Of a DNA stretch of 64,000 nt, positions 43,695-48,113 are shown one piece after another. The notes beneath the pieces are model-generated. The model was not told the DNA's origin and did no database searches. It saw only the letters and a list, made by a program, of their open reading frames with translations. The translations under genes were made by a program, and so were the position numbers. The DNA is from an uncultured Acidobacteriota bacterium. GTDB taxonomy: Bacteria; Acidobacteriota; Polarisedimenticolia; J045. Position 1 is the stretch's first letter, and the number at the start of each line of letters is the position of its first letter. The stretch is from NCBI GenBank assembly GCA_964582785.1, contig CAZOTT010000001.1:15007-79006 (forward strand). Reading direction: 5' to 3'.

Positions 43695-46600
43695 TCAGCG
43701 GCCGTAGTGGCCCCAGGGTCCGACCCCGTCCGGGCCCTCCCCGACGACGATCCAGCAGCGGTAGGTCCCGCCGGAGGTATCGCGGAAGGTGTTGTCCGCC
43801 GGGTCGTCGTCCTCGCCGGTCACGTCGGAGAAGTTCTCCGCCGCCGACGGATCGGAAGCCCGCCAGACCTGGTAGGTGAGGCAGAGCGGGTCGCTCCACC
43901 ACTCGAGGACGACGGCATCCGCGTCCTTCCGGACGGAGGTCAGTTTCACCTCCCCCGGGACACCGCAGGCCGAGTCGTCGCAGACCTGCTCCGTGGACTG
44001 CACGACGATGTCGTCCACCCACCAGCCGGTCCTGCTGGAGGAGGAGTCGCAGGCATAGTGCCAGCGGAATTTCACCGTCTTTCCGCTCCAGGCGGAGAGG
44101 TCCACGACCACGTGCTTCCAGTCGGTGTACTCCCCGGTCCAGCCGTCCCGGCCCGAGAGGGGTCCGCCGGAGAAGCTCCGGTCATACCCTCCCTCCGTGA
44201 TGCTCGGCCCGAGGTCGGTCCAGGTGGCGCCCCCGTCGTCGCTGATCTCGAGAACGCCCCCGTCGTACCCGCTCTCCGAGTCCATGAAGTGCCAGAACTC
44301 CAGGGTCGCCCCGTCCGCCAGGGTGTACTCCCTGCTGTAGAGGCTGTCTTCCTTGGTCGAGTCGACGTCGGAAACGAACCAGGCCCAGGATCCGCCGCCG
44401 GTGTGGTTCTTCGTGTCGGCGACACCCCAGTCGTCGGTGCCCTGGCTCGCGGAGTGGGACCACCCTTCCGGCTCCGCCCCCCCGTGCTCCAGGTCCTCGG
44501 TTTCCTGCCGCGGCTCGTCGTCCACCTCGAGGACGTCGTCGAACCCGTCCTGCCAGGTTCCCTCCGTGGACGTCATGTCCACCGTGAAGTGGGCGTTCTC
44601 CATGCAGGAGACGGCGCCCGTCTCCACCCGGAACCGCGCGGTCGCCTCCTGCTGGAACGGGATCGTGCCGAGGTCCACCGGGTTGTTCAGCACGGCGACC
44701 TTCGCGTCCGACGAGAGGGATGCCTCGACCGCCGTCGCGTCCCCCCAGCCCCGGTTCCGGATCGTCACCTCGTACCAGACCGTCTCCCCGACGTCGGCGT
44801 GGCCGTCCGGATCGCAGGCCTCCCCGTCGTCCACCGCGTGGCCCGACACCACGAGGTCGGGAACCTCCTCCGCCCTGTCGCCGCAGACCTCGAGTCGCCA
44901 GTTGTTCAGGGTGCCCGTATCCCCGCCGGCGTGGTCCTCGACGATCAGCTTCCAGGTACCCCACGCGTTCTCCCCGTTGAACCTGTCCAGCGACTCGGCG
45001 GGCTCCGTCTCGGTGTCGTACCAGGTGACGATGTCGTCGTCGCTGCCCCCCGTCCGGTCGTGGAGGACGACCCGCGTTCCCGCGGGAGACTGCACGATCA
45101 CCCGCAGGTCCCCGATGTAGGTGTGGGAGATATCCACGTAGACGTTCACCTCGCTGATGACGATCTTGTTCGGGTAATCGAGGGTGCTCTCCACCGTCGA
45201 GTTGTCCTCGATGTCCTTCGGCACGTCCGTGGAAAAGTCCGACTTGGCGCAGGACGAGATCATCACGTCGAAGGTCAGGACCCAGTCGGTATCGGACCCG
45301 GACTCGTGGACCGAAAGGGTGAAGGTCACGGGCTGCTGGTCCGGCGCGTCGTCCGCCACGGAGAAGCGGAACGGCGGCGGCTCGTTCGGCTGGACCTTGC
45401 CCGCCTCGATGTCCGGCCAGTCCGCCTCGTCCCGGAGGATCGTGATGTACGGGGAGTCACAGCTCAGGGTCCCGTGGATCCCCCGCGCGTCCCGGTGCCC
45501 CTGGTTGGCCAGGTAGACCGTCATGTCCACGGTCTCCCCCGGGCCGGCGACACCGTTCCCGTTGCCCCCCTCGCTGTCGTCGATGTCGTAGTGGTCCACG
45601 TCGAGCTGCACGGCGGCGACCCGCTCGCTGAACGACGTCGTTCCCGAGCTGCCGTCGGCGGCGTGCCAGTCCAGCTCGAACCCCATCAGCGACCAGTCGG
45701 GGACGCCGTCGAGCACGTGCACCCGGTAGTGGTCCGGCAGGCTCGTCCCCTGCTCGTGAGGCTGCAGGTCGGGGAAGTCGGCCATGTCGTCGACGATCTC
45801 GCAGAGGCCGGGGGTGGTCGTCCGGAGCTGCCCCCAGAGCCCCGTCCCCGGCTGCTCGCCCACGTTCTCCACGGTGACCGGCATGGTGAACGTTTCCCCG
45901 GGGTTCGCCACCCCGTCACCGTCCCCGCCGTCGGTGTCATCGACCTCGTGGGAACGGTGAACGAGCCAGGGCGAGTCCGGCGAGATGACCTGCGTGGAGC
46001 CCAGGTGGGGCCGGAAGTCGTGTTTCGTCACGGTGACCAGCATGTCGCCCACCTGCTGGGGCGCCGGGTCGAGCACCAGCGTGACCTCCCCGTTCGCGTC
46101 CGTGTAGCCGGACTCGAAGACCCCCTCGTCCTCCTTCTGCACGGCCACCAGGGCCCCCTCCACGGGCTGGCCGTTCCAGCTCACGGTGACCGTGAAGTGG
46201 CTCTCACCGATCGGCAGGCTGTCGTCGTAGCTGACGTCCCAGTCCCGCGGGGCCCGGGTCCAGAGGGAAAGGGACGGCTCGGCCAGCAGGTTGTACATCT
46301 CGAAGTAGTACTGCACCGTCCCGGTGTCGCCGTAGTGGTCGTAGAGATCCATCTTCGACAGCCGGTTGATCGTCGCGATCGCCGGGGTGTCGTCCATCGG
46401 GAACGTGTGGGTGTGCAGGCGGCGCTGGAAGTAGTCGTCCTCGTCCCAGTAGGAACTGTTGGACGCCCCGAGGAAGGCGATCGCCCCCTTGTGGGCCAGC
46501 TTCTGCCACGTCTCGCCGAAGCACTCGTCCCGGTTGAGGGTGCCGGTGACACAGGCGTTCGAGATGACGAACGGGTACATCCCGTCGTTCGTGTTCGAGC

Positions 46601-48113: not shown

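Follow-up and report, generated by a model that had tools for sequence, protein, structure and literature searches.

To our knowledge, the peptidases of family C25 that have been characterised are Porphyromonas enzymes only. The gingipain Kgp of Porphyromonas gingivalis (4rbm, 6i9a, and 5mun) is built from a signal peptide, a prodomain of around 200 residues, a caspase-like catalytic domain, and an IgSF domain, and it carries haemagglutinin/adhesin domains and a T9SS C-terminal domain (CTD) in addition. The catalytic triad of Kgp (H444, C477, and D388) and the roles of its S1 residues have been described (PMC6426963), and in RgpB the homologous prodomain loop puts Arg126 into the S1 pocket, matching the specificity of that enzyme (PMC4138498). 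In estuarine sediment metagenomes, C25 peptidases bearing signal peptides form the most abundant exported peptidase class, and zinc carboxypeptidases are abundant as well (PMC6752024). The P-domain is a hallmark of another group, the kexin/furin convertases (S8B) and the Aeromonas sobria protease ASP, and in furin-type enzymes it is packed directly after the catalytic domain.

The locus described here lies in a window of 64,000 nucleotides, the whole stretch of DNA that was analysed, from an uncultured, high-GC Acidobacteriota bacterium. Its minus strand was confirmed to carry a genuine and uninterrupted gene for a large C25 cysteine protease, with the domain order signal peptide, prodomain, C25, IgSF, two CARDB-like domains, P-domain, CARDB, MAM-like, and FN3-like (Table 1). 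The signal peptide, prodomain, caspase-like domain, and IgSF domain are shared with Kgp, and the catalytic triad, the S1 residues (Asp, Asn, Ser or Thr, and Trp), and the lysine of the prodomain loop align between the two proteins. In contrast to Kgp, the protein lacks haemagglutinin/adhesin domains (none matched in Pfam at E<=1) and a T9SS CTD, and its tail is composed of three CARDB-type domains, the P-domain, and the MAM-like and FN3-like domains. Gingipains in the strict sense are T9SS cargo of Bacteroidota, from which the present protein differs by its Acidobacteriota host and by the absence of a T9SS sorting domain and of cleaved-adhesin domains. The exported C25 peptidases of sediments (Thermoprofundales, Bathyarchaeota, and others) are likewise signal-peptide-bearing proteins outside Bacteroidota and were read as extracellular degraders, whereas the domain architecture found here is not described there (PMC6752024). 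The gene is an uncharacterised variant within a known kind of protease, not a new kind of system, and we consider it likely that its product is the Sec-exported zymogen of a gingipain-K-like C25 endopeptidase, probably Lys-specific, for extracellular protein degradation.

Table 1 Features of the C25 peptidase gene and its leader in the window.
Feature	Position	Strand	Residues and basis
Leader, 151 nt	48114..48264	-	Between fabI stop and start codon
Complete gene	43695..48113	-	1472 codons and stop; identity to P0001, GC3, 27 full-length homologues, orthologue start
Sec-type signal peptide (predicted)	48036..48113	-	~1-26; MKQR, hydrophobic core, ..GLAG; read from sequence
Gingipain-type N-terminal prodomain	47379..48011	-	~35-245; Pfam and Kgp prodomain match
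Putative inhibitory loop PVQPPVPKIPGA	47661..47696	-	140-151; contains Lys147
C25 catalytic domain	46263..47297	-	273-617; Pfam Peptidase_C25
Asp418	46860-46862	-	Triad residue, aligned with Kgp D388
His484	46662-46664	-	In NYSGHGS, aligned with Kgp H444
Cys521	46551-46553	-	In ISNACVTG, aligned with Kgp C477
Asp559	46437-46439	-	S1 residue, aligned with Kgp D516
IgSF/transthyretin-like domain	45978..46241	-	~625-712, after the catalytic domain; Kgp IgSF alignment
Two CARDB-like beta-sandwich domains	45258..45968	-	~716-832 and ~837-952; AlphaFold model and alignments
Proprotein-convertase-type P-domain	44874..45251	-	~955-1080; Pfam, profile, AlphaFold model
CARDB domain	44499..44861	-	~1085-1205; Pfam and AlphaFold model
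MAM-like/choice-of-anchor-J-like jelly-roll domain	43980..44459	-	~1219-1378
FN3-class C-terminal domain	43698..43967	-	~1383-1472; ends GPDGxGPWGH[YF]xx-COOH (conserved)

The catalytic domain is covered by the complete Pfam model Peptidase_C25 (PF01364; model positions 1-374 of 374, E 9e-64, 216 bits against a cut-off of 23). The best relatives of solved structure are, in order, Kgp (4rbm, E 3e-37), RgpB (E 7e-25), and the Kgp prodomain, although the identity to the catalytic region of Kgp is low (phmmer, 131 bits at that E-value of 3e-37). The first-pass annotation of this DNA had recognised a C25 His/Cys pair in the motifs YSGHGS and SNACVTG, and the two residues, His484 and Cys521, indeed align with their Kgp counterparts; together with Asp418 and Asp559, they are invariant across 27 homologues. 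In the S1 pocket, D516, N475, T442, and W513 of Kgp correspond to D559, N519, S482, and W556, all of which are invariant in the family, and one difference in the lining was found, with Gln491 aligned to Ala451 of Kgp. By the family model, the aligned triad, and the N-terminal prodomain, the protein can be assigned to MEROPS family C25 (clan CD), and its S1 pocket predicts that cleavage probably occurs after Lys, or at least after a basic residue.

The prodomain is matched by Pfam Propeptide_C25 (PF08126; residues 83-216, 29 bits against a cut-off of 22) and by the Kgp prodomain 5mun (residues 75-240, E 9e-13). In its putative inhibitory loop, Lys147 aligns with the lysine of the Kgp segment QPSMSKSDD, which we take to be the inhibitory-loop Lys129 inserted into S1. 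All 27 homologues have this lysine, never Arg, and the loop is also retained in a distant homologue that carries a T9SS CTD (P0059). [quoted passage not shown] The S1 pocket, with Asp559 at the bottom and Asn519, Ser482, and Trp556 around it, would then select Lys, or at least a basic residue, at P1. Among the homologues, the linker between the prodomain and the catalytic domain contains no conserved Lys or Arg, and there is thus no evident site for autocatalytic release between the two.

An enzyme of the same class with Arg specificity or dual Arg/Lys specificity, like Rgp, is a rather unlikely reading of these data. RgpB, too, is significantly related (E 7e-25), but the score of Kgp is better by 12 orders of magnitude; Gln491 in the pocket wall could reshape S1, but the position of the acidic S1 residue is that of Kgp. 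The hydrolysis of Arg substrates, not of Lys substrates, measured in C25-rich sediments (PMC6752024) would suit such an enzyme, whereas the prodomain loop residue, which in gingipains matches the specificity (PMC4138498), is the lysine described above in every homologue. Lys specificity and latency through Lys147 are the clear predictions that the family offers.

Behind the catalytic domain, the first-pass annotation had expected Ig/CARDB-like modules and a further C-terminal domain, and these were resolved into IgSF, CARDB-type, MAM-like, and FN3-like domains. In the domain annotation that it had called for, Peptidase_C25, P_proprotein, and CARDB exceed their Pfam cut-offs, and the C-terminal domain falls into the fn3 class by profile. 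The IgSF region aligns with the IgSF domain of Kgp up to chain residue 455 and scores 27 bits, under the cut-off, with Pfam CarboxypepD_reg. The shorter paralogue P0031 has one CARDB-like domain, to which both CARDB-like domains can be aligned, as they can to the corresponding domain of the M14 proteins (see below). The CARDB domain is recognised by Pfam at residues 1085-1179 (28 bits against a cut-off of 22.7), and the MAM-like domain is matched by InhA-like_MAM (PF20773; residues 1241-1384, 41.2 bits against 26.9) and approached by NCBIfam choice_anch_J (NF038128; 29.1 against a cut-off of 30). A local match of 108 bits to myxo_dep_M36 covers the CARDB and MAM region, to which the matches of both myxo_dep_M36 and rhom_dep_M36 are restricted. 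The AlphaFold model of residues 705-1472 (pLDDT 86.6) is all-beta with six strands in the C-terminal domain, and Foldseek with this whole tail model of 768 residues retrieved generic multi-Ig proteins only and was uninformative.

The profile of the C-terminal domain, searched against 1.84 billion representatives, matches fn3 repeat proteins, and wherever it matches over its full length, the match is at the very C-terminus. Eight of the single-copy C-terminal matches were scanned (all but five further short ones), and each is a protein or fragment of the C25, MAM, or M14/P-domain type. The remaining listed matches are multi-copy internal repeats, and the one scanned, P0102, contains fn3 (PF00041). 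A new and widespread sorting signal was discarded on these grounds, with the scanned terminal copies confined to C25/MAM/M14-type proteins and the rest being internal repeats. The beta-sandwich and jelly-roll tail of around 850 residues would most likely bind substrates, particles, or the cell surface, and a part in stabilising the catalytic domain, like that of the P-domain in furin, is unlikely.

Pfam, profile, and predicted fold agree on the P-domain, which had been noted as a textbook example. P_proprotein (PF01483) matches residues 987-1075 (E 4e-22, 78.6 bits against a cut-off of 21), and the family profile finds A. sobria ASP (4e-8), furin (9e-5), and kexin (1e-4). For the AlphaFold model of this domain (pLDDT 83, pTM 0.81), the first 27 PDB matches are all furin, Kex2, or ASP, with TM values of 0.57-0.71. 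The homology with kexin, furin, and ASP is accompanied by clear differences: the catalytic domain here is a C25 cysteine peptidase and not a subtilase (no PF00082 match), and the P-domain starts around 340 residues, or three beta-sandwich domains, after it instead of being packed directly against it as in furin-type enzymes. The JGI name of the homologues, "subtilisin-like proprotein convertase family protein", is therefore a misnomer. The earlier remark that the pairing of a P-domain with a C25 domain is unusual holds against the textbook convertases, but in metagenomes the pairing recurs, in around 30 clusters of this protein family and in a second architecture (P0063, P0066, and P0067). The same P-domain is found on M14 carboxypeptidases of the same lineage, and a planctomycete S8 protease has five copies of it. 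A word-indexed search with the P-domain alone yielded four fragments and was uninformative. The P-domain is one of several add-on modules swapped between proteases of environmental bacteria, a mobile accessory module on cysteine, metallo-, and serine peptidases, and this matters for annotation because the homologues are mislabelled as subtilisin-like proprotein convertases. A literature search for C25 with a P-domain, or for C25 with Acidobacteria, returned nothing relevant. The C25 family described here would furthermore be a tractable T9SS-independent model outside Bacteroidota; beyond these points, the findings pose no challenge to current understanding.

Two related groups of proteins occur in the same lineage. 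Short C25 paralogues of around 1090 residues, such as P0031 on CP070706 and P0041 ("choice-of-anchor J domain-containing protein"), are 54% identical in the region of the prodomain, catalytic domain, and IgSF domain and have the same CARDB, MAM-like, and C-terminal domains, but they lack around 375 residues that comprise the two CARDB-like domains and the P-domain. Short and long forms coexist within the same MAGs. The M14B proteins of Acidobacteriota (e.g. L062 7239-9698, Acidobacteria bacterium Mor1) share the CARDB-like/P-domain cassette (35-43% identity) and the FN3-like C-terminal domain (41-60% identity), which ends WGH[YF]GR, but they have a zinc carboxypeptidase domain and no MAM-like domain and are around 810-845 residues long. 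By its catalytic domain, this group is nearest to carboxypeptidases D, M, and N, and enzymes of the M14B type cleave basic residues from C-termini. Three MAGs contain both C25 and M14 genes, namely CAYQTA (L001, L006, and L058), JAMOQA (L003/L005 and L056), and JAGOJY (L014 and L064). In CAYQTA, the C-terminal domains of the M14 and long C25 proteins are 59% identical, and that M14 domain is 60% identical to the one in the window; other long-C25/M14 pairs show 42-48% identity, and short C25 proteins reach up to 55%. These values give a weak hint of concerted evolution within a genome, and the C-terminal domains cluster mainly by enzyme family, not by genome. In the reading that we favour, the C25 protease would break down proteins outside the cell to peptides for uptake, and the M14 enzyme may trim the basic C-termini that it makes. 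The OPT oligopeptide transporter encoded in the same window and the abundance of exported C25 peptidases and zinc carboxypeptidases in estuarine sediment metagenomes (PMC6752024) are in keeping with this role. C25 and M14 genes were not adjacent at any locus examined, so the cooperation of the two enzymes is a conjecture.

The M14 proteins suggest a second alternative, in which the protease is not a bulk nutritional enzyme but a dedicated processing protease that acts with the carboxypeptidase-D-like M14 on particular precursors in the periplasm or at the cell surface, and the P-domain and C-terminal domain that they have in common would bring the two enzymes together at one site. The homologous cassette and the terminal WGH[YF] domain common to both enzymes within the same MAGs point in this direction, and the basic C-termini removed by M14B-type enzymes are those expected from a Lys-specific endopeptidase. 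The short paralogue without a P-domain in the same MAGs further suggests sub-functionalisation. This reading is nevertheless unlikely, given that no substrate, partner, or M14 gene lies adjacent, that the C-terminal domains group by enzyme family as described, and that such multi-domain tails are typical of scavenging exoenzymes. Its most specific form, a two-enzyme "cut and trim" system of the Lys-specific C25 and the M14 enzyme with the P-domain and FN3-like domain as a shared docking/export module, is quite doubtful. If true, it would be a bacterial counterpart of furin and carboxypeptidase D, or of gingipains and CPG70, but with another endopeptidase fold and no dependence on T9SS.

The protein was expected to be secreted, and every complete homologue has a signal peptide: the basic-then-hydrophobic N-terminus is found in 25 of the 27, and the other two are truncated at the N-terminus. 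The predicted signal peptide has no lipobox cysteine and would direct transfer across the inner membrane; actual secretion and its route are an inference. The view that the Por/T9SS route of genuine gingipains is improbable here agrees with our searches, in which neither PF18962 nor TIGR04183 (Pfam and NCBIfam) matched at E<=1. A divergent T9SS CTD was also considered for the C-terminal domain and was rejected at an hhalign probability of only 0.14% for its profile against the T9SS CTD. The proposed search for C-terminal sorting signals (CTD, PEP-CTERM, and MYXO-CTERM) likewise detected none: no NCBIfam model for PEP-CTERM, MYXO-CTERM, GlyGly-CTERM, or LPXTG tags matched at E<=1, a motif followed by a hydrophobic helix and a basic tail is absent, and the C-terminus is hydrophilic (...GPDGVGPWGHYGR). 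A PorU-like sortase or transpeptidase of family C25, which would process the C-terminal signals of other proteins, is very improbable: the local matches to the NCBIfam PorU and PorU2 models are weak (60.4 bits against a cut-off of 420 and 63.2 against 450), Kgp and RgpB are the nearest relatives of solved structure, a prodomain of the inhibitory gingipain type and an S1 pocket for basic residues are predicted, the protein is without a T9SS CTD, and T9SS is described as confined to some Bacteroidetes species (PMC5445135).

The minus-strand ORF spans 43695..48221, and its in-frame ATG at 48113 gives a product of 1472 residues, the very large size first proposed; an NCBI-sourced protein (P0001) matches this product at 100% identity. 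An orthologue at the syntenic locus L001 is 92% identical, has the same length, and begins with the same ATG. The full length and the domain order are kept by at least 27 metagenomic homologues (around 1465 residues, 54-76% identity) on independent contigs, confirming a single continuous gene rather than separate genes meeting at domain boundaries. The GC3 value is 0.93 in the minus frame only and uniform along it, as for a gene with native codon usage, and homologues are likewise found for the minus frame only; the antisense ORF at 43707..48161 was dismissed on this basis as a high-GC shadow. An artefact (assembly chimera, two-gene fusion, or pseudogene) is barely conceivable, with no point found in its favour and with an uninterrupted frame of uniform GC3, a constant length and domain order in 27 independent contigs, and L001 synteny through both flanks against it.

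The nearest loci (92% identity, syntenic) are from uncultured Acidobacteriota MAGs, in line with the earlier placement of the host outside Bacteroidota. The neighbouring genes are unrelated housekeeping genes, so the context lends no functional support, and no secretion-system genes were found among the scanned ORFs of the window. Neither a sigma-70-like promoter nor a terminator-like site in the leader or just past the stop codon was found, and the nearest terminator-like sites are at 43443-43459 (+) and 43225-43211 (-). The ribosome-binding site reported before is GGAGG, 6 nt upstream of the ATG, and the spacer to fabI, given as about 150 bp with a hairpin, measures 151 nt and contains a perfect 9-bp GC hairpin at around 48128-48150. 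A regulatory RNA was rejected for this leader: the hairpin is real, but the predicted fold of the leader is not superior to that of shuffled sequence (z -1.17), and a T-run and an Rfam match are both absent. The last ~100 nt of the leader are conserved in L001 and L003, where the hairpin stem is invariant and the loop variable.

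The 1472-residue protein is a member of family C25, and the first-pass annotation, which described a secreted gingipain-like peptidase carrying a P-domain, was accurate. A gingipain in the strict sense is ruled out by the missing T9SS CTD, the missing adhesin domains and a host outside the Bacteroidota, and a proprotein convertase by the absence of an S8 domain. The best explanation of the sequence is a Sec-exported C25 endopeptidase, probably Lys-specific and kept latent by its prodomain, whose long beta-sandwich tail would bind substrate or surface and whose role would be extracellular protein degradation. 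This explanation fits the OPT peptide transporter within the window and sediment metagenomes in which exported C25 genes are reported to dominate and zinc carboxypeptidases are also abundant (PMC6752024).

The protein contains the motifs 'NYSGHGS' and 'ISNACVTG', and its best solved relatives are the Lys-gingipain Kgp (4rbm, E 3e-37), the Arg-gingipain RgpB (1cvr, E 7e-25) and the Kgp prodomain (5mun, E ~1e-12). Adding 228 to the 4rbm chain index gives Kgp numbering, in which the His is residue 444 and 'NCC' has its second Cys at 477. The His/Cys pair proposed from the sequence aligns with these two residues. The Kgp triad is C477, H444 and D388, the amine of the P1 lysine is held by D516, N475 O and T442, and the lysine is sandwiched by W513, A451 and C476 (PMC6426963). 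The paired residues are the same or conservatively replaced, except at the A451 position (Q491), and are invariant across the 27-sequence family alignment. In the prodomain loop 'PVQPPVPKIPGA', Lys147 pairs with the lysine in the Kgp segment 'QPSMSKSDD', reportedly Lys129 of the inhibitory loop described by Pomowski et al. 2017. All 27 homologues have Lys147, and its loop is also kept in P0059, a distant homologue with a T9SS CTD; no conserved basic residue was found in the linker between prodomain and catalytic domain of the family homologues. Taken together, triad, S1 residues and Lys147 loop speak for an endopeptidase that is made as a latent zymogen and is specific for Lys, or at least for basic residues. 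A first, less likely rival reading is Arg specificity: RgpB is among the solved relatives, and its homologous inhibitory loop puts Arg126 into S1, matching the specificity of that enzyme (PMC4138498); the loop residue aligned here is a lysine.

Positions of the C25 gene, its domains and active-site residues, and of related M14 genes
Feature	Position	Strand	Basis or remark
C25 ORF	window 43695-48221	-	in-frame ATG at 48113 gives 1472 aa, starting MKQRF
Propeptide_C25	residues 83-216		Pfam
Peptidase_C25	residues 273-617		Pfam, E 9e-64, whole model covered
Transthyretin-like match	residues 641-704		Pfam, sub-threshold
Two CARDB-like domains	residues ~716-832 and ~837-952		AlphaFold model; undetected by Pfam
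P-domain	residues ~955-1080		AlphaFold model
P_proprotein	residues 987-1075		Pfam, E 4e-22
CARDB	residues 1085-1179		Pfam
InhA-like MAM	residues 1241-1384		Pfam
CARDB domain, MAM-like jelly roll, six-strand C-terminal domain	last three tail modules		AlphaFold model
Triad, Kgp to C25 protein	H444 to H484; C477 to C521; D388 to D418		alignment with 4rbm
S1 contacts, Kgp to C25 protein	D516 to D559; N475 to N519; T442 to S482		
S1 sandwich, Kgp to C25 protein	W513 to W556; C476 to A520; A451 to Q491		
P-domain M14 enzymes, Acidobacteriota	L062 7239-9698; L058 2455-7314; L064 4621-7044; L065 4426-6963; L056 2282-4702		

The AlphaFold model of residues 705-1472, built from 12 family sequences (pLDDT 86.6), is all beta with six modules, and together with the Pfam matches it bears out the CARDB-type modules and further C-terminal domain described at first pass. 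In NCBIfam, choice-of-anchor J scores close to its threshold, and the CARDB and MAM region has local matches to sortase-dependent M36 metallopeptidases; in Foldseek the whole-tail model matched generic multi-Ig proteins only. The P-domain family profile matches the Aeromonas sobria serine protease ASP (4e-8), furin (9e-5) and kexin (1e-4) across the full P-domain, and the best 27 PDB matches of the single-domain model (pLDDT 83, pTM 0.81) are furin, Kex2 and ASP (TM 0.57-0.71). The P-domain is thus genuine. Since three domains separate it from the catalytic domain, a furin-like chaperoning contact would be unlikely. Its relatives on M14 carboxypeptidases and a planctomycete S8 protease show that it behaves as a mobile accessory module.

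The pairing of C25 and P-domain, called unusual at first pass, is so by textbook standards, yet environmental data show it repeatedly: the full architecture is found in about 30 clusters (54-76% identity, ~1465 aa). For several of these, the JGI name 'subtilisin-like proprotein convertase family protein' is wrong and stems from the P-domain. A second architecture that combines C25 and P-domain occurs in P0063, P0066 and P0067. A C25 paralogue of ~1090 aa in the same MAGs shows 54% identity up to the end of the IgSF domain; what it lacks is precisely the P-domain and the pair of CARDB-like domains, so the long form equals this short form plus a cassette of ~375 aa. M14 carboxypeptidases of the same lineage (loci L056, L058, L061-L065, L067) are built, in this order, from M14, transthyretin-like, CARDB-like and P-domains and the shared C-terminal domain. 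Identity to the C25 query is 35-43% in the cassette and 41-60% in the C-terminal domain. The nearest relatives of their catalytic domain are carboxypeptidases D, M and N, which corresponds to subfamily M14B, whose enzymes remove basic residues from C-termini. In the planctomycete locus L068 (3826-11187), a 2454-aa S8 subtilase has nine transthyretin-like domains and five P-domains, the latter 53-54% identical to that of the window protein and far from the S8 catalytic domain.

All C25 family members end at most two residues past 'GPDGxGPWGH[YF]'; the C-termini of the M14 proteins read 'G[HY]TGEGxW[GE]H[YF]GR'. A second, less likely rival, a dedicated processing role together with an M14 partner, draws on the domains that the two enzymes share. 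The C-terminal domains cluster mainly by enzyme family. In MAG CAYQTA, the M14 copy is 59% identical to that of the long C25 protein of the same MAG and 60% to that of the window, against 42-48% for other long-C25/M14 pairs, which is only a weak hint of coupling. Searched against 1.84 billion representatives, the profile of the domain gave 1327 matches. Wherever a match is full-length and single-copy, it sits at the very C-terminus; the eight that were scanned, besides which there are five further short C-terminal matches, all come from proteins of C25, MAM or M14/P-domain type or from fragments. The remaining matches among those listed are multi-copy internal repeats of large proteins; the only one scanned, P0102, carries fn3 (PF00041) repeats. 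The domain is of FN3 class, with a terminal variant limited to two protease families among the matches checked, and a general sorting tag was rejected on that distribution.

The N-terminus is basic and then hydrophobic in all complete homologues, and the C-terminus is hydrophilic. The suggested search for sorting signals with Pfam and NCBIfam models matched no T9SS CTD, PEP-CTERM or similar signal, and the C-terminal domain profile shows no similarity to the T9SS CTD. The T9SS sorting domain PF18962 is present in more distant homologues from FCB-group phyla and absent here, so the Acidobacteriota family has a different C-terminal end, and the first-pass view that a T9SS route is unlikely is right. 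The closest of 68 related loci (one genome per species) are uncultured Acidobacteriota MAGs. A PorU-like sortase of the C25 family, the third rival, is disfavoured, in part by these C-terminal results.

The last rival, an artefact, is refuted by the domain order and length shared across 27 contigs and by the synteny with L001. The site is open on both strands in a uniformly GC-rich window (~0.68-0.78), and only the minus frame has homologues and, with a GC3 of 0.93, the codon usage of a genuine gene in this genome. P0001, an NCBI-sourced protein, is 100% identical to the product, and the L001 orthologue (92% identical) has the same ATG start and equal length. GC across 44001-48000 is 0.68-0.70, slightly below the flanks (0.72-0.75); because GC3 equals that of neighbouring genes, the difference comes from the amino-acid composition and is no sign of a foreign origin.

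Window and L001 are syntenic for NuoB, methyltransferase, acyl-CoA dehydrogenase, fabI, the C25 gene, alcohol dehydrogenase and peroxiredoxin (83-95% amino-acid identity); these neighbours are housekeeping genes, so the C25 gene stands alone. The ribosome-binding site and the hairpin-bearing gap to fabI of about 150 bp were both recovered: GGAGG lies 6 nt 5' of the ATG, the upstream neighbour is indeed fabI, and the 151-nt spacer contains a perfect 9-bp GC hairpin. With a fold z-score of -1.17, the hairpin is real and unremarkable at such base composition; no T-run, terminator-like site or Rfam family was found in the leader. Its last ~100 nt (48114-48220) are kept in the close orthologues at L001 and L003, where the stem never changes and the loop varies, and further upstream both diverge from the window. 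In the minimum-free-energy fold, GGAGG pairs with an upstream CCUCU, which could mask translation initiation, in a fold no better than chance. Where the window has only the spacer, L001 has an extra 295-aa ORF (4892-5779, minus strand) with putative CPBP/CAAX-type intramembrane protease motifs 'GEELWFRG' and 'ALFGLVH', identified by eye. The myxosortase described by Haft is reportedly a CPBP-family enzyme, and the C25 neighbourhood may be worth a look.

Elsewhere in the window, an OPT-family oligopeptide transporter (18688-20862, minus strand, E 1e-93) fits a peptide-scavenging lifestyle. An MtrB/PioB-like outer-membrane porin ORF adjoins several multihaem cytochrome ORFs (2327-7595 and 15012-17918; Paired_CXXCH, cytochrome c7 and MtrC-like), two of them fused to a cytochrome b561 domain, and the cluster resembles a system for extracellular electron transfer, here in a genome of the Acidobacteriota. 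An open frame of 1587 codons (9169-13932, minus strand) has a coding-like GC3 of 0.86 and matches no Pfam family at E<=1e-4. At 33229-36519 on the plus strand, a radical SAM domain is fused to a class I SAM methyltransferase domain in a protein of ~1096 aa.
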